Assembly: GCA_013154145.1 (NCBI GenBank)
Contig: JAADDC010000063.1
Span: 1-25,446 of the forward strand
Direction: 5' to 3'
Length of the DNA: 25,446 nucleotides
Origin: Candidatus Iainarchaeum sp.
Lineage (GTDB): Archaea > Iainarchaeota > Iainarchaeia > JAADDC01
This document shows positions 2,328 to 12,417 of the stretch, piece after piece (position 1 is the first letter of the stretch; each line of letters starts with the position of its first letter). Both the position numbers and the translations under genes were made by a program. The notes beneath the pieces are model-generated. The model was not told the origin of the DNA. It ran no database searches and was given only the letters and a program-made list of their open reading frames with translations.

Positions 2328-2915
2328 GTGGCCCTGCTGATTTCCTCCCCCCAGGAGTTGAGGAAGGTCGTGGACGAGGAGATCGCCCCGGAGCTCTACG
2401 AGTACGTCCGGATGGGCGGCATACTGAGGGTGGAGGGAAGGGGAGAAGAGCTGAGGGTCATCTACCCCAGCAGGGAAATGATAAGGAAGCGGTTGAACGA
2501 GCTGAAGGAAAGGGAGAAGACCATCATCGCCGAGATGTCCAAGCTCAGGAGATTGGAGAAGAGGGGGAGCCCCCTGGACTTACTGAGAATAAAGCACCGG
2601 ATACTTCTCTTGGTGGACAAGGACTACAGGGAGCTGGCGGAGCTGGTGGACGCCGAGAGGCTTTTGAGTGATAAGAGGGGGAGGAAGATTGTGGAGGAGC
2701 TCCAGAGGAGCAAAGAATACCGGGAACGGATCCGGGAAACCCTCAGGGAGAGCCCCGTTTATAGGAATCGCCGCTTCGGGGAATTCGTGGAGAAGGTGGA
2801 GGAAGTAAAAGGTAAGTTGCTGGGTGAGAGGTACAGGAAGCTTGAGGAGTCGCTGGAGAGGGTCAGGAAGGAGATGGAGGTTCTCCGGAGGCTGCAGAGG
2901 TGGGTGAAGGGGTAG
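2328..2915 (+). CDS. Hypothetical highly charged coiled-coil protein (195 aa)
   Basis: E/K/R-rich helical sequence with codon style like its neighbours; TATA upstream; its TAG overlaps the GTG of hel308 (TAGTG). Confidence 0.7.
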   Translation: MALLISSPQELRKVVDEEIAPELYEYVRMGGILRVEGRGEELRVIYPSREMIRKRLNELKEREKTIIAEMSKLRRLEKRGSPLDLLRIKHRILLLVDKDYRELAELVDAERLLSDKRGRKIVEELQRSKEYRERIRETLRESPVYRNRRFGEFVEKVEEVKGKLLGERYRKLEESLERVRKEMEVLRRLQRWVKG

Positions 2916-5065
2916 TGGACCCGGCGAGGCTCGTTCTCGAGAGGAATCGCTACGAGGACTTCAACCCGGTTCAGAAGGAAGCTTTGAAGGCTGGTGTCAC
3001 CGAGGGCGTCAACCTCGTTGTGGCGTCCCCCACCGCCTCGGGCAAGACCACCATAGCGGAGCTGGCCATGGTTGCCTCGATCCTCCGGGGGAAGAAGGCC
3101 GTCTACACCTCCCCCCTCAGGGCCCTGGCCGCCGAGCACTACAGGGAGTTCGCCCGGAAGTACCCAGAGTTCAGGGTGGCCCTCTCCATAGGCGACTACG
3201 ACTCCAAGGACGCACACCTCAAGCACTATGACGCCATCTTCACCACCTACGAGAAGCTGGACTCGCTCATAAGACACAGGGCGCCATGGCTGCCGGACGT
3301 GGGAGTACTTGTCGTCGACGAGGTGCACAGCATCGACTCGGACAGGGGGCCCACCCTGGAAGTGTTGCTCACCCGCATGAAGTCCTTTGATATCCAAATA
3401 GTGGCCCTCTCGGCCACCATCCCCAACGCCGAGGAGATAGCCGGCTGGCTGAGGGCAAAGCTCGTGGTCTCCAACTGGCGGCCCGTGGAGCTCGTAGAAG
3501 GTGTCTACTACGATGGCGTCGTGAGGTTCAACAACGGCGAAGAGCTCCGTTTCTCCAGCGAAGAGGAAATCATAGAAGACGCCCTAAAGAGGGGGAAGGG
3601 CGTGCTCATCTTCGCCCCCACGAGGCGCTCTGCCATGGCCACCGCCAGAAAACTCAGGGAGATAACCAAGAAGTACGTGAGGGGGAGAACTCCCCTGAGG
3701 AGCCTCGCGGAGAGGGTGCTGAACGCCCTGGAATCCCCCACGGCACAGTGTAAAGAGCTGGCCGAGGACATACTCCACGGCGTTGCCTTCCACCACGCGG
3801 GTCTCGTCCAGAAGCAGAGGGAGGTGGTGGAGGAGGGCTTCAGAAGCGGAAAGATAAAGGTGGTGGTGGCCACGCCCACGCTGGCCGCCGGCGTCAACCT
3901 GCCGGCCTTCCGGGTCATCATCACTTCGTTGAGGAGGAGCGAGGGCTTTTACAGCAGGGAGATCCCCGTGAGGGAGTACAAGCAGATGGCGGGGAGGGCC
4001 GGCCGGCCCCGGTACGACGAGAGGGGCGAGGCCATCATCATAGCCCGCACGCCCAAGGACGCCGAGCACTACTTTGAGAAGTACGTGATGGGGGAGCCCG
4101 AAGAAGTTTATTCCCGCCTGTCCTCCTACAGGGCCATACGGTTCCACACGCTGGGGCTCATAGCGGACCGAACTGTGAGAAATCGCGACGCCCTCCTGGA
4201 CTTCTTCGCCAGCAGCTTCTTCTTCTATCAAAGCAAGGACGTGGACAGGCTCGAGGAGCTCCTCTCGTCGGCGGTCCTCGAGCTGGAGCTCTGGGAGATG
4301 ATCAAGGACTTCGAGCCCACGAGGCTGGGGAGCCGCGTGGCCTCCCTCTACATTGATCCCGAGACGGGGAGGATGTTCTACGATTTCTCCCGGAGGCCAA
4401 AGCTCGGCGAAGTGCCCGTGCTCTTCCTCATTGCCTCCTCCGTGGAGCTTTATCCGTACCTGCCGGTGTCGAGGAAGGAGGAGATGGAACTCCTGATGAT
4501 GGCCGAGGAGATGAAGGAGGAGCTCCCCGTGGACTTCGAGGAGGCCCTCAACGACATACACTTCCTCAACAGGTTCAAGCTGGCACTTTTACTATCCAAG
4601 TGGGTGAACGAGGCGGACGAGGACGAGATACTGAAGGAGTTCGGGGTCTCGCCGGGGCAGCTGAGGGGTATCATTTCCATTGCCGAGTGGCTGGCCCACT
4701 CCCTGGGGGAGATCGCCAAGGTGGCGGGCAGCGGAGCCGTCTCCGTGTACGCCAAGAAGATGGAGGCGCGGATACGGCACGGCGTCAAGGAAGAGCTGCT
4801 CCCGCTGGTAGAATTGAAGGGCATTGGGAGAAAGAGGGCCCGAAAGCTCTTCAACGCTGGCTTCACTTCCCCGGAGAAGATAAAGAGGGCCGACCCCGTG
4901 GAGCTGGCCAAACTCCTGGGACCCAAGGTAGCCCTTAATATTCTCAAGCAACTTAAGGTTAAGGTGGGGGACGAGGTGAAGGAGAGGATAAGGAAGGTGT
5001 CCCCCGCCGAGCAGACGACCCTGGAGGTGTTCATGGGTGGAGCCCCTGGAGATACTGAGGAGTGA
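2915..5065 (+). CDS. hel308: Hel308/Hjm (Ski2-like SF2) DNA helicase
   Basis: Q motif FNPVQ, Walker A SPTASGKT, PLRALA, DEVH, LSAT, HHAGL, TPTLAAGVNLPA, QMAGRAGRP, C-terminal HhH (LKGIGRKRARKLF). Start at GTG 2915 after GGTGAAGGGG. Confidence 0.95.
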   Translation: MDPARLVLERNRYEDFNPVQKEALKAGVTEGVNLVVASPTASGKTTIAELAMVASILRGKKAVYTSPLRALAAEHYREFARKYPEFRVALSIGDYDSKDAHLKHYDAIFTTYEKLDSLIRHRAPWLPDVGVLVVDEVHSIDSDRGPTLEVLLTRMKSFDIQIVALSATIPNAEEIAGWLRAKLVVSNWRPVELVEGVYYDGVVRFNNGEELRFSSEEEIIEDALKRGKGVLIFAPTRRSAMATARKLREITKKYVRGRTPLRSLAERVLNALESPTAQCKELAEDILHGVAFHHAGLVQKQREVVEEGFRSGKIKVVVATPTLAAGVNLPAFRVIITSLRRSEGFYSREIPVREYKQMAGRAGRPRYDERGEAIIIARTPKDAEHYFEKYVMGEPEEVYSRLSSYRAIRFHTLGLIADRTVRNRDALLDFFASSFFFYQSKDVDRLEELLSSAVLELELWEMIKDFEPTRLGSRVASLYIDPETGRMFYDFSRRPKLGEVPVLFLIASSVELYPYLPVSRKEEMELLMMAEEMKEELPVDFEEALNDIHFLNRFKLALLLSKWVNEADEDEILKEFGVSPGQLRGIISIAEWLAHSLGEIAKVAGSGAVSVYAKKMEARIRHGVKEELLPLVELKGIGRKRARKLFNAGFTSPEKIKRADPVELAKLLGPKVALNILKQLKVKVGDEVKERIRKVSPAEQTTLEVFMGGAPGDTEE

Positions 5066-7160
5066 CGAGGAGAGGAGGGCCATCATAGGCAGGAAGAAGA
5101 GCCTGTTCAGGAAGAATGGCTTCAAGACGGCTTTATATATCGGAAAGATCGAGGAGGAGGGCCCCCTCTACGGCTACGACCTCTACATGGATGCGCTGCT
5201 TCCCCACGTGGTCTTCGTGGCCGGTGCCCGCGGCAGCGGAAAGAGCTACACGCTGGGCGTCATAGCCGAGGAACTGGCCGAGAAGAACCCCTATGTGGGC
5301 GTCCTCATCATCGATCCCATCGGCATCTTCTGGTCCATGAAGCTGCCGAACAGGCAGGAGGAGGAGATCGAGAAGCTGGCCGAGTGGGGCCTGACGCCAA
5401 AGGGATACGACAACGTGGAGGTCTACGTGCCCAAGGGCATGGCAGACCGCATACCGCCCGAAACCTACGACAAGGTCTTCTCCCTGAAGCCCTCCATGCT
5501 CACCACCGACGACTGGGTGTTGACCTTCGGATTGGATCGATTTTCCCCGGCGGGACTGCTCCTGGACAAGGTCCTGGAGATCGTAAGGGAAAAAAGGGGA
5601 GACGACTACGGCCTTGAGGATATCATAGAAGTTTTGGAAAACGAGGAGGAGCTACTGGACAAGGAGAAGGGCTTCAAGAAGGAGACCGTGAGGGCCCTGC
5701 TCTCCCGCTTCTACGCCGCCCGCAACTGGGGCATCTTCGACAGGGAGGGAACGCCCCTCTCGGAGATCATCCAGAAGGGGAAGGTGAGCATACTGGACAT
5801 CTCCTTCCTGGAGGAGAGTGTGGGGGCCCTGGTCATCGGCATCATGGCCCGGAGGATACTCCAGGCCCGGAAGCTCATCACCCGCTCCGTGGCGGCGGAG
5901 CTCCTGAAGCTCTCGGAGAGGGAGAAGCGGGAGGTGGACATCCCGCCCACCTGGCTCATCATCGACGAGGCCCACACCCTCATCCCGGCGGGATCCCGGA
6001 AGACCGCCGCCACGGACCCCCTCATTGAGTACGTGAAGCAGGGCAGGAGGCCCGGCTGCTCCCTGGTCTTTGCCACGCAACAACCCTCTGCCATAGACAG
6101 CAGGGTCCTCTCCCAGCTGGACATACTCATCGTCCACAAGCTGGTCTTCGGCGAGGACGTGAAGGCCGTGGAGAAGAGGATGCCCACGATACTGCCCAAG
6201 GAGTACAGCGGCGTGAGGATGAGGAGGTTGCCCGTAGGCGTGGCCATCATAGGAGACAGGGAGGACTCCACTTCCCGGGCCTTCCTGGCGCGGATACGTC
6301 CCCGGAGGAGCCAGCACGAGGGCCGGGAAGTGGCCGTTGACGAGAAGGTTAGCGTGGAGGTCCCCGAAGAAGGGGAGGAGGTGGAAGAGGTGAAGAAGGA
6401 AAGGAAGGAGGAGAAGCTGAGGCGTTCCTTCGTGGTGAACGTCACGGAGGACAGGGCCAGGAAGATCATGGCCAGTCACGGCAGCTCCTTCTTGAGGAGG
6501 ATACTGGGGGGCGGAGGCAACGTAGTAGATCTAAAATTGAAGTTCGTTCCCGTCTGGGAGGTGACCTTCGCCTACTACAATGCCCCCAGGGGATCCAGCA
6601 AGCGGGTGGCCTACATCGACGGCTACGAGGGGGAGTTCATCCACTACAAGGACGGGAAGATCGTCTTCTCCAAGGGGCTGAAGTACCTCTACAAGCTCTC
6701 CCGGAACCAGAGGAAGTTGCTCCTTTTCCTGAAGACCCACCCGGGCTCCACGCTCTCCGAGATCGTGGCCCGGGCCAAGGTGCCCGCCGCGGTGGTAGAA
6801 AAGGAGCTGGAGCTCCTGAAGCAGGCAGGGCTGGTCAAGGAGGAAGACGGCCGCTACTACACGCCCCTGGAGATCGAGCTACCCCTCTCCCCCGAGCACT
6901 CCCTCATACCCTCCATGAAGGAACTGCTGGTGACCGAGACGAGGATAGAGGACGAGGAGATACTGCCCTACAACTTCAAGGAGGACCGGGTGGCCGAGAT
7001 ACTGCGCTCCATATGGCCCGGCGTAGTCCCCCGGGAGGTGGAGCCCATCTACAGGCCCGTCTGGGTGGGGATAGTCCTCAGGGGAGGGAAGAAGTACAAG
7101 GTCATCGTGGACGCCATCAGCGGCGTGGTGGAAAAGGAGATCCCACTGGTGGAAGCATGA
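5037..7160 (+). CDS. HerA/FtsK-superfamily (DUF87/COG0433-type) ATPase lacking a HAS barrel, with C-terminal PepSY-like - winged HTH - PepSY-like region
   Basis: Walker A GARGSGKS, IIDPIG, Walker B IIDEAH, arginine-finger region QGRRPG, ATQQPS. The C-terminal ~250 aa has two PVW...D(G/A)xxG repeats flanking LSRNQRKLL...TLSEIV...VEKELELLKQAGLV. SD GGAGGTG at 5023-5029. Confidence 0.85.
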   Translation: MEPLEILRSDEERRAIIGRKKSLFRKNGFKTALYIGKIEEEGPLYGYDLYMDALLPHVVFVAGARGSGKSYTLGVIAEELAEKNPYVGVLIIDPIGIFWSMKLPNRQEEEIEKLAEWGLTPKGYDNVEVYVPKGMADRIPPETYDKVFSLKPSMLTTDDWVLTFGLDRFSPAGLLLDKVLEIVREKRGDDYGLEDIIEVLENEEELLDKEKGFKKETVRALLSRFYAARNWGIFDREGTPLSEIIQKGKVSILDISFLEESVGALVIGIMARRILQARKLITRSVAAELLKLSEREKREVDIPPTWLIIDEAHTLIPAGSRKTAATDPLIEYVKQGRRPGCSLVFATQQPSAIDSRVLSQLDILIVHKLVFGEDVKAVEKRMPTILPKEYSGVRMRRLPVGVAIIGDREDSTSRAFLARIRPRRSQHEGREVAVDEKVSVEVPEEGEEVEEVKKERKEEKLRRSFVVNVTEDRARKIMASHGSSFLRRILGGGGNVVDLKLKFVPVWEVTFAYYNAPRGSSKRVAYIDGYEGEFIHYKDGKIVFSKGLKYLYKLSRNQRKLLLFLKTHPGSTLSEIVARAKVPAAVVEKELELLKQAGLVKEEDGRYYTPLEIELPLSPEHSLIPSMKELLVTETRIEDEEILPYNFKEDRVAEILRSIWPGVVPREVEPIYRPVWVGIVLRGGKKYKVIVDAISGVVEKEIPLVEA

Positions 7161-7732
7161 GGGAGTTCAACTACGTGGAGTTACTGCCCCGCCGGGGAGT
7201 GATAGCCGTCCTGGGCAAGGACGTGGAAGAAAAAATAATGAGGGCCGCTGCCTACGCCCGCGAGGAAGGCAAGAAGTTAAAGGTCGTTCCCCTGAACCCG
7301 AGGCAGGCAGAGCTCGCCCAGAGGCTGAACATCCCCACCGTCCACGGCTACCCGGACTACTTCTACGTGCTGCTGGACTTCGAGCCCATGGAGAACCTCT
7401 TCACCGTGGGCAACTGCGACTGTCCCATGCTCCTGAGGCTCTACGAGATGGGGGCCGAGAAGACGGTGGTGCTGCTGAGGAGAAAGTACCACACGGTCTC
7501 CGTGGAGTACAGCACGTACCTCTCTCATCTCATCGAGCCCATTATTTCCCTCTACGGGGAGATCGTGGCCCGCAGGGAAAACCCCTTTGGCCATAGGGTG
7601 GTGGACATCGTCCCCATCGAGGAAGATCCGGAAGAATTGAGGAGGTTGCTCAAGGAGGTTCCCGGGGTCGTGGAGGTGGGGATACTGCCCATAATCCCCT
7701 ACCGCAAGATCGTCCTCAAAAGCTCCCGGTGA
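7157..7732 (+). CDS. Ribose-5-phosphate isomerase A-fold protein with degenerate active site
   Basis: KVVPLNPRQAELAQRLNIP and FGHRVVD...DPEELRRLLKEVPGVVEVGI align with RpiA (VPTS.QA..LA...IP; DNGNFIID...DP.....L..IPGV.E.G). The GTGST, DGADE and KGxG motifs are absent. ATGA overlap with the ATPase stop; the track's 7013 start is spurious. Confidence 0.7.
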   Translation: MREFNYVELLPRRGVIAVLGKDVEEKIMRAAAYAREEGKKLKVVPLNPRQAELAQRLNIPTVHGYPDYFYVLLDFEPMENLFTVGNCDCPMLLRLYEMGAEKTVVLLRRKYHTVSVEYSTYLSHLIEPIISLYGEIVARRENPFGHRVVDIVPIEEDPEELRRLLKEVPGVVEVGILPIIPYRKIVLKSSR

Positions 7733-8505
7733 GAGGAGCAGGGTATCTGCTCGAAGAAGCGGAGCTCCCCGTCGAAGAGGGCGTAGCGGACACCGTCCCT
7801 GTAGTAGCCTCCAGTATCATGGCAGTGGCCGAAGAGCACCGCCACCCTTCGATACAGTCCCCTTCGCTTTCCCCGGAGCTCGTGGGGCGAGTGTCCCTTG
7901 AGGAGGAATAGATCCCTTTCCTCCAGGGCTTTTTCAACGGCGGATAGCTTCCAGAGGGATGGGTTATCCACGCTGACACCACGGAGTGATGTGGAGAACG
8001 GGTCCGAGTCGCTCCAGACGATCTGGAACTCCAGGGAGGGGGTGACCTCCACGCGGGGCAGCGAGCGGATCACATTTGACGGCAGGAAGCCGTGGACGGC
8101 CAGCAGGGGAGGAGCGTAGTAGATCACGGGGAGCAGCTCGTGGAGACGCTCGTAAAGGAGCAACTCAGAGGGGGTCAGGAACCTCACCACGTCGTAGGGA
8201 TAGACAGGGCCCACGTATCGCGGCGACGAGGGGCTTCCCACCTCGTGGTTCCCCCTGAGAAGTATAGCTCCCTCCAGGAAGAGCTCCAAGACCCCCTGAA
8301 TGGTTTCCCGTTGGTGAATCCCCCTGTCGGCGTAGTCGCCGAGAAATATCACCCTGTGGCCCGTTTCCAGGAGCTCCCGGGCGAGGGGGATCACGGAGGG
8401 GTCGCCGTGGAGGTCCCCCACGAAGAATGAAGGAGCGGAGGATTCCACCACGAGCTTGGGGAGCTTCCTTGCCTTCTCTATGGCCTCCAGGAGTAGGTCC
8501 TCCAC
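7699..8505 (-). CDS. PPP-family (PP1/PP2A-like) Ser/Thr protein phosphatase, calcineurin-like metallophosphoesterase
   Basis: GDLHG, GDYADRG, LRGNHE, AVHG, WSD and KGH motifs in correct order; 3' end overlaps the RpiA-like gene by 34 nt. Confidence 0.85.
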   Translation of the reverse strand: MEDLLLEAIEKARKLPKLVVESSAPSFFVGDLHGDPSVIPLARELLETGHRVIFLGDYADRGIHQRETIQGVLELFLEGAILLRGNHEVGSPSSPRYVGPVYPYDVVRFLTPSELLLYERLHELLPVIYYAPPLLAVHGFLPSNVIRSLPRVEVTPSLEFQIVWSDSDPFSTSLRGVSVDNPSLWKLSAVEKALEERDLFLLKGHSPHELRGKRRGLYRRVAVLFGHCHDTGGYYRDGVRYALFDGELRFFEQIPCSSHRELLRTILR

Positions 8506-8526
8506 GAAGGAGAATGAGGGGAAGAG

Positions 8527-8532
8527 CTTATA
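8527..8532 (-). promoter_or_regulatory. Putative TATA box (TATAAG) containing the rpl44e stop codon, serving the phosphatase gene
   Basis: First T is 27 nt before GTG 8505; pyrimidine-rich spacer without SD. Confidence 0.5.
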
Positions 8533-8821
8533 CGTTTACGAGCTCCACCTTCTTCATCCGCTTGTCGATGACGAAGTACGTGTAGTGGCCGCAGACAGAG
8601 CAGCGGGCCAGGAAGGTGGGCTTCTTGTTTTGCTTGTAGACGGTGGTGGTCTTGTGGGCCTTGATCTTGTTGGCGCCGTAGCCCTTGAGCTTGTACTTCC
8701 TCTTGACCCTCTCACCCCAGGCGAGGCCCCTCGTCTGCCTGCGCTTGAACTCCTTGAGGGTGTGCTCCGTGTGGCGGCCGCAGTGCTTGCAGTAGAGCTT
8801 GATCTTCTTGGGGAGTTTCAT
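8528..8821 (-). CDS. rpl44e: 50S ribosomal protein L44e (eL42)
   Basis: MKLPKK...YCKHCGRHTEH...WGER...GYG...KK...RCSVCG zinc-binding pattern; SD GGTGAT upstream. Confidence 0.93.
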   Translation of the reverse strand: MKLPKKIKLYCKHCGRHTEHTLKEFKRRQTRGLAWGERVKRKYKLKGYGANKIKAHKTTTVYKQNKKPTFLARCSVCGHYTYFVIDKRMKKVELVNV

Positions 8822-8854
8822 GGGATCACCGCATAAGCTTTTGCCCTCGGAATC

Positions 8855-8861
8855 TTTTAAA
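8855..8861 (-). promoter_or_regulatory. Putative TATA box (TTTAAAA) containing the cdc6 stop codon, serving rpl44e
   Basis: 40 nt before ATG 8821, leaving a short leader that contains GGTGAT. Confidence 0.45.
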
Positions 8862-10041
8862 GGCTTCTCCTCACGACGGCCAGCAGCTTCGCCGGGTCCA
8901 CGTTGAGGTCCACGATGCGCGTGTTCCCCCTGAAACCCTTGCCCGCCGTCTTCACACTGATGATTCCGTAGGTTTCCAGCTCGTTGAGGTACTCGCGGAA
9001 CTGCCTGTCGCTGACGGGCGTGAGGACGTGGTCTTCCGCCACCTTTCTGTAGTAAGAATAGAGGAGACCCGACGTGACCACCTTCTCCCCTCCGAAGCTG
9101 GACACCCCCTTCTTGCCCAGCTTAAGAGAAGCAAGGGCCATGAGGACGGCCCTGTGCTGTTCTGGCAAGGAAGCCACCATCTCGTAGACGATCTCCTCCT
9201 CTACCAGCTGCCTTGCCCTCTCCACGTGCTCCCTCTCCACCCGCGGGGCGCCCTCCTCCTCGGCGATGTCCCCGGCCCGGAGCAGTAATTGCAGGGCGTA
9301 GCGGGCGTCCCCCGAGTGCTTGGCGGCAAGGGCGGCTGCCAGGGATATGGCCTCCGGGGCCACGGCCCCCTCCTTGAAGGCCTCCTGGGCCCTCTGCTCG
9401 AGGATGATTCTCAGCTGCTCCGCGTTGTAGGGCGGAAAAACCAACTCCACCTCGCAGAGGGTGCTACGGGTCCGGGCGTCCAGCTGCTCCTTGAAGGTGG
9501 GGTTGTTGGATATGCCGATGATGGATATGGAGCCCCTCTCCAGCTCGTCGTTGGCCCGGTTTAAACGATATATGAGGTCCCTGAGCCGCTTGATCATGTC
9601 GATCTCGTCCAGGGCCACCACCAGCCTCAATCCCCTCCCGTCGATGAGCTCCAGGAGTTTGTCGTAGACGGCGGAGGTGGAGTAGCCTATGAGGTCCCGG
9701 GAGGGATCCAGGTGGCGGACCAGCTTCAGGAGCACCGAGTGCTCGCTCTCCCTCATGCCGTTGACGTATATGCCCATGGCAGGGATGTTGTGGGAGCGGG
9801 CGTAGTCGTTGAGGTCAGAGAGGACTTTCTTGGTGACTGCCGTCTTTCCCGTGCCCGTTTTGCCATAGATGAACACGTTCTCTGGTTTCCTGCCCGAGAG
9901 AACGGGCGCTATTTTCTGGGAAAGCTCCCGGATCTCCTCCTCCCTGAAGGGCAGCTCGGAGGGCAGGTAGTGGGGCGAGAGGACGTCCCTGTTCTTGAAG
10001 AGCCTGTACTCCTTCACCACCTCTTCAAAGACGTTGCCCAT
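8857..10041 (-). CDS. cdc6: Orc1/Cdc6 replication initiator (AAA+ plus winged helix)
   Basis: FKNRDVLSPHYLPSELPFREEEI, Walker A GKTGTGKT, Walker B VALDEID, sensor regions ISN and GDARYAL, C-terminal wHTH (FREYLNELETYGII...GFRGNTR). True start ATG 10041 (MGNVFEE); the track extension to 10176 overlaps sepF. Confidence 0.95.
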   Translation of the reverse strand: MGNVFEEVVKEYRLFKNRDVLSPHYLPSELPFREEEIRELSQKIAPVLSGRKPENVFIYGKTGTGKTAVTKKVLSDLNDYARSHNIPAMGIYVNGMRESEHSVLLKLVRHLDPSRDLIGYSTSAVYDKLLELIDGRGLRLVVALDEIDMIKRLRDLIYRLNRANDELERGSISIIGISNNPTFKEQLDARTRSTLCEVELVFPPYNAEQLRIILEQRAQEAFKEGAVAPEAISLAAALAAKHSGDARYALQLLLRAGDIAEEEGAPRVEREHVERARQLVEEEIVYEMVASLPEQHRAVLMALASLKLGKKGVSSFGGEKVVTSGLLYSYYRKVAEDHVLTPVSDRQFREYLNELETYGIISVKTAGKGFRGNTRIVDLNVDPAKLLAVVRRSL

Positions 10042-10053
10042 AATACCCACTCC

Positions 10054-10083
10054 TATTAAAATCCTGCGGGATAACAGTTTATA
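10054..10083. promoter_or_regulatory. Divergent cdc6/sepF promoter region: TATTAAAA (+, 10054-10061), near-palindrome ATCCTGCGGGAT (10061-10072), TTTATA/TATAAA (10078-10083)
   Basis: AT-rich boxes in a 68-nt intergenic spacer; SD GAGGTGAT at 10097-10104 for sepF and GGAG before cdc6. Confidence 0.45.
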
Positions 10084-10109
10084 GAGGTGCATCAGTGAGG
10101 TGATAAGTG

Positions 10110-10466
10110 ATGGGGCTCCTGGACGCCATATTCGGAAGGAAGAGGGAAGAGATTGAGCTGGACGAGTTTCTGGCATCCCTCGAAGAGGGCGAAGAAATCC
10201 TCGAAGAGGCCAAGATGTACGTGAAGCCCATGCAGCTGCTCTCCCAGAAGGATTACGACGTGGTGATCTCCGAGCTGGAGAAGGGCAACATCGTACTGCT
10301 GAACATACGCCCCATGGCCTCCCGGAACATGATGATGGTGAAGGAGGTCGTGGGCAAGATCAAGGACTACGTCCTGGAGCACGGCGGGGACATCGCCAGG
10401 ATCACGGAGTATTACGTTCTCGTGACCCCGCCTGGGGTAAAAATCGTGAAGCGTAGATCCCGATGA
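10110..10466 (+). CDS. sepF: Archaeal cell division protein SepF (FtsZ membrane anchor)
   Basis: N-terminal amphipathic helix MGLLDAIFGRK, acidic linker, core YVKP...ELEKGNIVLLNI...GGDIARI...VLVTPPGVKI. ATG 10110 follows SD GAGGTGAT; GTG 10107 is an alternative. Confidence 0.88.
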   Translation: MGLLDAIFGRKREEIELDEFLASLEEGEEILEEAKMYVKPMQLLSQKDYDVVISELEKGNIVLLNIRPMASRNMMMVKEVVGKIKDYVLEHGGDIARITEYYVLVTPPGVKIVKRRSR

Positions 10467-11167
10467 AGCTGGCCTACCCAGCTCCCACCCTCTCCATTGG
10501 CCTTGACACACTTTCAAAGGTAGTGGCCGATGTACTCAGGAAGAAGCACTGGCACCGCTTCAAGGAGGGCACCGTCAAGCTCGTTTACATTCCCGTCTAC
10601 GTTTTCACCTACGAGGTGTTTCTGGAGGAGAACGGCGTCGTCGTGATGGAACAGACGGGGAAGGTGGCCGTCAACGGAGAGACGGGAGAGCTGCTTGAAC
10701 ACGTTCCCTACGTTCTCGACGAGATGCCCCTGGAGCTGACCACCGAGCCCAAGCACGGCTACCAGATGGAGGTGAGGGACTTCACCCTCTCGAAGGAGGA
10801 GGCCAAGGAGTTGGCTCAAATAAAGTTAGCGTCCCTCCTGAAGCTCCCCAGGTCCGCCATAAAGGTGGTGGGAGGGAACAAGCTCCTCTGGCCCGTCTGG
10901 AAGGTCTGGGTGGAGGTGAGGGAGGGCACCTACCGCCTTGACGTGGACGGCGTCACGGGCATGGTTTTCGGGGCCGAGAAGGTTCCCGAGAGGGAGCTGG
11001 GCTGGTACGAGATCACTCAGCAGGTGCTCACGGAGCTGAGGTCCCCCCGCGGCTGGATAAAGTACCTGAACAAGCTGGCGGAGCTCCTGAGGGTTCCCCC
11101 GTGGGTGGTCTACACCGCGGTCTTCGGACTGATCCTCTACCTGCTTTATATTATCTTCGTCAGGTAG
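10463..11167 (+). CDS. Uncharacterised membrane-anchored protein with two PepSY-like repeats and a C-terminal transmembrane helix
   Basis: Repeats LVYIPVYVF...VAVNGETG and LLWPVWKV...LDVDGVTG; hydrophobic C-terminus VPPWVVYTAVFGLILYLLYIIFV; no N-terminal signal peptide; ATGA overlap with sepF. Confidence 0.75.
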   Translation: MKLAYPAPTLSIGLDTLSKVVADVLRKKHWHRFKEGTVKLVYIPVYVFTYEVFLEENGVVVMEQTGKVAVNGETGELLEHVPYVLDEMPLELTTEPKHGYQMEVRDFTLSKEEAKELAQIKLASLLKLPRSAIKVVGGNKLLWPVWKVWVEVREGTYRLDVDGVTGMVFGAEKVPERELGWYEITQQVLTELRSPRGWIKYLNKLAELLRVPPWVVYTAVFGLILYLLYIIFVR

Positions 11168-11218: not shown

Positions 11219-11647
11219 GTGGAAAAGCCCCTGATCTCCTTCTCAGAGGGCAGCAGCGACGTGGAGAAAAGGCTGCTCTCCCTTGAAAGGGAGCTCCTTT
11301 TACTGAAAAGTCGTGTCCGGAAGCTCGAGGAAGCCCTGAAGGAGTACTTAAAAGAAGAGGAGCCCGAGGAGGCCCTGTTAACCACCCTCGACGTGAGCAA
11401 CCCCCGGGTGGTGGAGATCGTCCTCGACTGGGTCAACTTCATGCTCTCGAAGGTGGGGGAGGAGGAGCTCCCCGTGCTATTGGACTACTACCGCTCCATC
11501 GGCTGGATATCCCGGGAGGTGGCGGAGATGCTCCTCCGCTACGCCCGGGGCATCAGGGTGGAGAGCTACAGGGGGTACATGACCCCCGAGGATCACGTGA
11601 AGAGCCTCGAGTACATAAACCGCATAAGGGAGGCGATGGGAAGATGA
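11219..11647 (+). CDS. Stand-alone ArlD/E (FlaD/E)-domain protein with N-terminal coiled coil
   Basis: IVLDWVNFMLSKVG...LLDYYRSIGWISREV...LLRYARG...EDHVKSLEYINRI matches the recalled Arch_fla_DE consensus (W..yL...G......L.YY..igWis......L.......dH..SL.yi..l); N-terminal heptads VEKRLLSLERELLLLKSRVRKLEEAL. Confidence 0.82.
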   Translation: MEKPLISFSEGSSDVEKRLLSLERELLLLKSRVRKLEEALKEYLKEEEPEEALLTTLDVSNPRVVEIVLDWVNFMLSKVGEEELPVLLDYYRSIGWISREVAEMLLRYARGIRVESYRGYMTPEDHVKSLEYINRIREAMGR

Positions 11648-12417
11648 AGCTGGCCGTGCTCTCGGGGAAGGGCGGTGTGGGCAAGACCCTGCTCTCCATC
11701 AACCTCTCCGTCATCTTTGCCCAGGAGGGCTACAAGGTACTGCTGGTGGATGCCAACTTCTCGGCCCCCACGGTGGCCACCTACTTCAAGACCGTCCCCA
11801 ACACCCACACCATAGACGAAGCCTTGGCAAAGGGTGCCACGGACCTCTCCTCCCTCGTGTGGATACACCCGTCGGGCGTGCACTTCGTGACACCCTCCTT
11901 CAACCTCGTGGGCCTCGACGACGAGACCCTCAGGAACATCTTCACCCTATTATCCCCCCTCTTCCCCAACTACGACTTCGTGATTTTCGACGGTCCTGCC
12001 GGCGTAGAGAAGGACGCCTACTACACGGTTCTCCACTCGGACGCGGCCCTCATCGTCACAAACCCCAACTACCCTGCCCTCTACAACGCCCTGAAGGTCA
12101 ACTACTTCGTCCAGGCCATGAAGAAGCCCGTGGTGGGCGCCGTCCTCAACATGGTCACGGGCAAGGACGAGGTGTCCCGGGAGGAGGCCCAGGCCATCGT
12201 GGAGGCCCCCATCATCGGCGAGATCCCCTATGATCCGGAGGTGAAGAAGGCCGTTAACGCTGGTCAGCCCGTGGTCCTCTACAACCCCAATGCGCCCGCG
12301 TCGAGGGCCATATACCAGATTGCCGAGGCGCTGTTGGGCAGGAAGCTCAGGAGGAAGCCCAGGGGCGGAGGTATCGGCGACATCATCAAGCGCGTCATCG
12401 ACTGGCTGCTGGGATAA
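11644..12417 (+). CDS. minD: MinD/ParA-family ATPase with C-terminal amphipathic membrane-targeting helix
   Basis: Deviant Walker A SGKGGVGKT, LLVDAN, IFDGPAG, VLNMV, IPYDPEVKKA...GQPVV, C-terminal GIGDIIKRVIDWLLG; ATGA overlap with the ArlD/E-domain gene. Confidence 0.9.
   Translation: MKLAVLSGKGGVGKTLLSINLSVIFAQEGYKVLLVDANFSAPTVATYFKTVPNTHTIDEALAKGATDLSSLVWIHPSGVHFVTPSFNLVGLDDETLRNIFTLLSPLFPNYDFVIFDGPAGVEKDAYYTVLHSDAALIVTNPNYPALYNALKVNYFVQAMKKPVVGAVLNMVTGKDEVSREEAQAIVEAPIIGEIPYDPEVKKAVNAGQPVVLYNPNAPASRAIYQIAEALLGRKLRRKPRGGGIGDIIKRVIDWLLG

Follow-up and report, generated by a model that had tools for sequence, protein, structure and literature searches.

In a 25,446-nucleotide stretch of Candidatus Iainarchaeum sp. 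(contig JAADDC010000063.1 of assembly GCA_013154145.1; hereafter the window), a 234-amino acid (aa) tail-anchored membrane protein, here called X, is encoded directly behind sepF and shares a twin, PepSY-like domain with a soluble HerA-clade ATPase encoded nearby. Judged from sequence and gene context, X is a credible, previously undescribed SepF-associated division protein. The explanation that we favor, at a probability of about 60%, is that X works with SepF in cell division, that the ATPase is a separate, DNA-binding core protein, and that the domain common to both reflects shared descent. The first-pass annotation had proposed a different arrangement, in which X and the ATPase are partners in a septum-anchored DNA translocation system.

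X is tied to sepF by gene order in close and distant relatives alike. In the window, the sepF stop codon and the X start codon overlap as ATGA (10463–10466), and a coordinate comparison placed sepF directly upstream of X, on the same strand and mostly with gaps of <50 nucleotides (nt), in 54 of the 57 relatives that have X. The other three comprise a contig-edge case, a genome that is 79% complete and has no detectable SepF, and a genome in which the two genes lie on separate contigs. At E ≤ 1e-3, 59 of the 61 relatives have a match to X, and at E ≤ 1e-5 so do 200 of the phylum's 215 genomes, both counts taking in a few genomes whose only match is the ATPase tail. A profile search of 1.84 billion representatives returned 214 cluster representatives at E ≤ 1e-3, and no ATPase occurs among the 150 matches listed of these 214. 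A related-locus search from a 14-sequence subset of X found only metagenome-assembled genomes that are labelled Iainarchaeum, Diapherotrites, or Micrarchaeota or are evidently mis-binned. Distant X homologues of 355–357 aa show a divergent cdc6, then sepF, then X, and in a complete 1.24-Mb relative, the run hel308, cdc6, sepF, X, polD is not interrupted by an ATPase gene. The conserved operon expected of a SepF-associated divisome component is thus found in 54/57 relatives, in the distant members, and at the level of the ATGA overlap, and the coupling of X to SepF that had been read from this one locus holds well beyond it. By this evidence, X would be transcribed together with sepF, and its translation coupled to that of sepF, across the phylum. 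In other families, the surrounding syntenic block runs hel308, cdc6, sepF, (X), and then a convergent polD DP2 gene (e.g., G018 C1 834000–843000).

The same order could be kept for reasons that have nothing to do with division: X might adjoin sepF merely as part of a frozen cdc6/sepF/X/polD block, with a head that binds a ligand or peptide. Synteny extends across the wider block of hel308, cdc6, sepF, X, and polD, and the conserved order therefore reaches past the pair; several lineages that keep SepF have lost X; and PepSY and cystatin-like folds are often inhibitors or binders. X was undetectable in nine genomes of at least six genera, in two of which (G024 and G036) sepF abuts polD without room for a gene. 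Against a frozen order, the shared strand, the short gaps, and the stop/start overlap point to co-translation, and the sepF–X pair survives differing flanks (polD, SpoU methylase, SepRS, or FlaD/E-like plus MinD downstream). Moreover, X was not found away from sepF save in the three exceptions given above. We regard this alternative as unlikely.

The architecture of X (10463–11167, + strand; AlphaFold 2 [AF2] model and profile searches) is simple. Two PepSY-like units, unit 1 at residues 5–88 (10475–10726, +; AF2, HHalign) and unit 2 at residues 99–170 (10757–10972, +; AF2, HHalign, X profile), form the head, which is acidic, with a median isoelectric point (pI) of 5.5. They are followed by a conserved juxtamembrane helix pair at residues 174–209 (10982–11089, +; VPERELGWYEIT..L.EL..P..W), apparent both in 94 homologues and in the model, and by a C-terminal transmembrane (TM) helix at residues 213–233 (11099–11161, +), identified from the AF2 model and the hydrophobic stretch. 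The juxtamembrane segment, VPERE(K/L)GW.E(I/V)T..L.EL..P..W, is the longest and best conserved linear motif of X across the 94 homologues; P195 and W198 are nearly invariant, and the model places helices at 181–192 and 195–209. Because the N-terminus folds into the domain (pLDDT ∼96), Lys and Arg residues precede the TM helix, and longer homologues carry a Cys-containing domain of ∼110 aa beyond it, the head is placed in the cytoplasm. In the long forms this makes an N-in bitopic protein, in the window form a tail-anchored one. One C-terminal TM helix, no signal peptide, and cytoplasmic repeats, as anticipated in the first-pass annotation, are therefore what the model, the charge distribution, and the long homologues indicate.

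In the arrangement that we propose, X, built of an acidic twin head, the conserved helix pair next to the membrane, and a single TM helix, would sit at the division ring with SepF, where it might act as a second membrane tether or as a SepF regulator or, in its long forms, link the ring to the envelope. Bacterial Z rings have membrane partners at their anchor, ZipA and EzrA, and ylmG lies downstream of sepF. X resembles these proteins in being single-pass, in having a cytoplasmic globular domain, and in being encoded with a ring-anchor gene; it differs from them in being anchored by its C-terminus and has no sequence or fold match to them in Pfam, Foldseek, or VIA searches. ZipA-like binding of the FtsZ tail by X was considered and dropped for lack of a fold match. 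Few proteins of the archaeal FtsZ ring are known: FtsZ1/2, SepF, and the PRC-barrel CdpB proteins. We found no description of X in the literature. A 2015 paper by Makarova (PMC5898192) contained none of the terms sought, a paper on dark matter in archaeal genomes (PMC4158269) contained nothing relevant, and a preprint on PRC-barrel proteins described no such sepF neighbor. The genomic context of archaeal sepF has been reported to be variable (Pende et al. 2021; PMC8178401).

The two units of X have counterparts in the ATPase tail, and translations of both genes placed the four repeats where they had first been noted. The ATPase carries unit 1 at residues 462–545 (6420–6671, +; from the AF2 tail model and its alignment to X unit 1), with the motifs FVPVWEV at residues 503–509 (around nt 6543) and YIDGYEG at 526–532, and unit 2 at residues 626–704 (6912–7148, +; Pfam PepSY and the X profile), with YRPVWVG at residues 672–678 (around nt 7050) and IVDAISG at 690–696. 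The corresponding motifs of X are YIPVYVF (residues 42–48) and AVNGETG (69–75) in unit 1 and LWPVWKV (142–148) and DVDGVTG (160–166) in unit 2. Between the ATPase units lies a winged helix-turn-helix at residues 552–611 (6690–6869, +), recognized by Pfam MarR_2 and TrmB and by exhaustive comparison with the PDB (VIA), in which tail residues 91–150 reached Z scores of 9–10 to MarR-type and other winged helices.

All four repeats are homologous, with similarity far beyond chance. A deep HHalign comparison of 94 diverse X homologues with 36 ATPase tails from across the class aligned X residues 5–177 with tail residues 1–246 collinearly at a probability of 97.8% (E 7.8e-13), with the winged helix as an insertion. 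Alternative alignments also crossed the units, pairing unit 2 with unit 1 at E 1.9e-6 and unit 1 with unit 2 at E 1.5e-4, and because these cross-unit alignments join them, all four units are related. A shallow comparison of close homologues (19 vs. 16 sequences) gave 84.5%, unit 2 against unit 2, and was suggestive only. In whole-genome searches, the X profile also matched, in ∼27 relatives, the final unit of the ATPase tail (per-genome E 1.5e-8 to 1e-3) and, in one genome, the first unit. A metagenomic protein of 1194 aa (P0198) gave 12 separate X-profile matches (X columns ∼59–109) and may be a long array in which part of the unit is repeated in tandem.

The likeness of these units to PepSY, noted at first from motifs, was borne out by profile and structure comparison, with solved PepSY proteins and AFDB models named “PepSY domain-containing” among the neighbors of both models. 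The AF2 models were confident (pLDDT 96.7 for X and 89.6 for the ATPase tail) and show each unit as one helix followed by long hairpin strands. Pfam PepSY matched 11 of 16 ATPase tails (best E 3.3e-7), and unit 2 of the window tail reaches 24.8 bits to PF03413, against a cut-off of 24, in a scan of the tail by itself. Among X homologues the PepSY matches (15 of 94) fall below threshold, the best at E 5.3e-5, and X of the window matches no Pfam PepSY model, nor any Pfam or NCBIfam family at all. VIA comparison of the X model gave modest scores to 4exr (Z 7.1), YpeB 5boi (6.5), YpmB 2gu3 (6.3), and UipA 7atk (4.6), and cystatin-like and eL20/LX folds reached similar values; a Foldseek search of the PDB with the complete X model found nothing below E 0.03. 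The PepSY alignments run over residues 7–174 of the X model with only ∼65 aligned positions, and those of eL20 and PurS over 44–141. From these ranges, the helix of one unit may pack on the hairpin of the other, and the two PepSY-superfamily units of each protein would then build one compact, interlocked, cytoplasmic twin domain.

Classical PepSY domains are extracytoplasmic. With those of YpeB, YpmB, and the M4 peptidase propeptides, the units described here share a helix on an antiparallel sheet that ends in a [VI][DN][AG]xxG turn; here, in contrast, the domain is cytoplasmic, appears doubled into one compact twin, and is joined either to an ATPase or to a membrane anchor of N-in topology. 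No sign of an extracytoplasmic location was found: X lacks a signal peptide and its topology is indicated as N-in, and the ATPase is soluble and without a TM helix. A description of a cytoplasmic twin PepSY form was not found in the literature.

The ATPase (5037–7160, +; 707 aa) had been called a HerA/FtsK ATPase. The first half of that name holds: it is a soluble HerA-clade motor with a winged helix, matching DUF87 (61 bits) and HerA_C (33 bits) in Pfam and HerA 4d2i in the PDB (E 1.8e-10), with Walker A (GARGSGKS) at residues 63–70 and no TM helix in its sequence. The second half does not, as FtsK_SpoIIIE scores 12.9 bits against a cut-off of 24. With HerA it shares the DUF87/HerA_C motor core and the Walker A, Walker B, and arginine-finger motifs. 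Unlike HerA, it leaves no space for a HAS barrel, since Walker A begins at residue 63 (9x1l, a “DNA helicase” among the HerA-type matches, aligns from its residue 165), and carries the twin PepSY-like and winged-helix tail; nor is it adjacent to nurA, mre11, or rad50, none of which a Pfam scan found in the window. FtsK, SpoIIIE, and SftA belong to the same ATPase superfamily and have a winged helix near the C-terminus (the gamma domain of FtsK), and SftA is likewise soluble, but the window ATPase differs from this group in its subthreshold FtsK_SpoIIIE score, its lack of TM helices, and a winged helix set inside the PepSY-like twin.

A tail-bearing orthologue is present in 58 of 61 relatives, and orthologues elsewhere in the class are ∼860–1,450 aa long by approximate open reading frame (ORF) calls. 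The genome of the window has a second, stronger DUF87 (HerA-like) match on contig C59, NurA on C28, and two FtsZ genes, and no FtsK_SpoIIIE match above cut-off anywhere. A defense-system HerA was rejected on two grounds: this is a core gene across the phylum, and none of the NCBIfam antiphage models comes near its cut-off. Clustering of 22 neighborhoods revealed no conserved co-oriented neighbor. The tail is basic, with median pI values over 36 tails of 9.4 for unit 1, 9.0 for unit 2, and 9.6 for the winged helix. On the sequence, then, the twin domain of the ATPase, split by a basic winged helix, forms a basic tail on a soluble HerA paralogue, and this tail probably binds DNA; the protein is the product of a stand-alone core gene of the phylum, distinct from the other DUF87 (HerA-like) gene and the NurA gene. 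Two features of its relatives stand beside this. The 951-aa orthologue of the complete relative (P0214, G018) has the same tail, an acidic low-complexity N-terminus of ∼150 aa, and an extra helical segment of ∼70 aa between motor and tail that is missing from the window ATPase. A family of ∼95-aa proteins is encoded immediately downstream of the ATPase gene, in the same orientation, in three genomes, and close by in a further two.

The twin domain also occurs well outside these two proteins. The best AFDB matches of the X model beyond the X family were Mrr-nuclease fusions, zinc-ribbon and “PepSY domain-containing” proteins, and a 989-aa “DNA helicase” (E 2.2e-7). The same 989-aa protein was the best AFDB match of the ATPase-tail model (E 4e-18), which also recovered the X-family model A0A7C3VC17 (E 2.7e-6) and at least 12 other matches of X. 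In the ESM Atlas, the twin domain was found on HerA proteins of Bathyarchaeota and Methanobacteriota, on Mrr_cat nucleases, and on zinc-ribbon proteins of Bacillota; together with the winged helix it was found on AAA ATPases of Altiarchaeota and on stand-alone proteins. Searching the ESM Atlas by language-model features yielded nothing of use. Structurally, the X model is no closer to the ATPase tail (E 2e-7) than to the copies fused to Mrr or zinc-ribbon domains (E 4e-9). This spread marks the twin domain as mobile and widespread, with X not specially near the ATPase copy, and, since the domain is promiscuous, sharing it predicts nothing about contact. The domain may extend to eukaryotes too: the APD1-4 middle domain of plant RING E3 ligases is faintly matched by two X homologues of the 94-sequence alignment, and the AFDB matches include amoebal RING-finger proteins.

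These distributions bear directly on the proposal of the first-pass annotation, according to which X, held by SepF, recruits the HerA-paralogue ATPase through contact between twin domains to make an FtsK/SftA-like septal pump. The twin domains are indeed homologous, both proteins are near-universal in the phylum, the genome lacks a true FtsK, and in the window the two genes are 3.3 kb apart, with the ATPase gene, an RpiA-like ORF, and a phosphatase gene lying between hel308 and cdc6. That spacing, however, occurs only in the window's own family (f1); elsewhere, in single-contig or near-complete assemblies, the two genes are ∼70–660 kb apart. All nine X-lacking genomes that were checked, spanning at least six genera, keep the ATPase tail, and the three genomes with X in which no tail was detected are 79–91% complete and carry little weight. 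Co-occurrence is otherwise uninformative because both genes are near-universal. The tail architecture is also present on HerA and AAA ATPases of Methanobacteriota, Bathyarchaeota, and Altiarchaeota and in stand-alone proteins (X was not searched for there), and the structural comparison above gives X no special affinity to the ATPase copy. With no linkage outside f1, with the ATPase retained where X is missing, and with a promiscuous domain, the comparison of co-occurrence and synteny across relatives spoke against the partnership, which is weakened and now looks improbable; the recruitment model built on it is correspondingly very doubtful. The 3.3-kb proximity would, on our reading, be a rearrangement specific to one family and no sign of a complex, and the domain shared by X and the ATPase would reflect common descent of a mobile domain.

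Several points weigh against the explanation that we favor. Seven of the nine X-lacking genomes keep SepF, which makes X dispensable for SepF in some lineages, and the functional link between X and SepF is drawn from gene order only. The packing suggested for the twin domain was read from alignment ranges and not from coordinates. The head of X is acidic and the tail of the ATPase basic, a complementarity of charge that would suit a heterotypic contact and speaks for the recruitment model, and there is bacterial precedent in Bacillus subtilis, where SepF helps to recruit the soluble FtsK homologue SftA (PMC9320952). In the version of the septal pump that these last two points allow, the acidic head of X would dock the basic tail of the ATPase at the SepF/FtsZ ring to give a septum-tethered DNA pump that replaces FtsK/SftA with unrelated parts; we give this version slimmer odds than any other possibility discussed here. 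Weighed together, we still prefer X as a partner of SepF in division and the ATPase as a separate DNA-binding protein.

The organism of the window is a DPANN archaeon with a reduced genome (543-kb assembly, 81% complete, G+C ∼60%); among named homologues and related contigs, the labels are Candidatus Iainarchaeum, Diapherotrites, or Micrarchaeota. Upstream of the ATPase gene lies hel308 (2900–5065, +), and downstream of it a small RpiA-like ORF (7157–7732, +), which overlaps the ATPase stop as ATGA, has a weak match to the RpiA C-terminus (Pfam E 0.0019, NCBIfam E 0.011), and is not kept beside the ATPase gene outside f1. A metallophosphatase gene (7699–8505, −) and orc1/cdc6 (8857–10041, −; Pfam Cdc6_lid and Cdc6_C), divergent from sepF, follow. 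The long cdc6 ORF runs over 8857–10176 (−), but its true start is probably the ATG at 10041 (MGNVFEE) and not 10176; a start at 10041 leaves a 68-nt divergent spacer before sepF (10042–10109), in which a TTTATAGA box lies ∼25 nt ahead of the sepF start. The sepF gene (10107–10466, +; Pfam SepF, 43 bits) likely starts at the ATG at 10110, and its product begins, as read from the sequence, with an amphipathic MGLLDAIFGRK. Downstream of X are a FlaD/E-like gene (Arch_fla_DE; 11219–11647, +) and minD (11644–12417, +), in places where the relatives examined have polD, SpoU methylase, or SepRS genes instead.

If a septal pump of the kind described above did operate, it would bear on how archaea that divide by FtsZ but lack FtsK clear the septum of DNA, and Iainarchaeota would do the job of FtsK/SftA with unrelated parts. 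The phylum-wide sepF–X operon is the more solid and apparently new result. The cytoplasmic twin form of the PepSY fold is now defined, as a domain that moves among ATPases, nucleases, and zinc-ribbon proteins, and a membrane protein encoded directly behind sepF across a DPANN phylum offers a concrete, testable candidate for a new component of the archaeal divisome.

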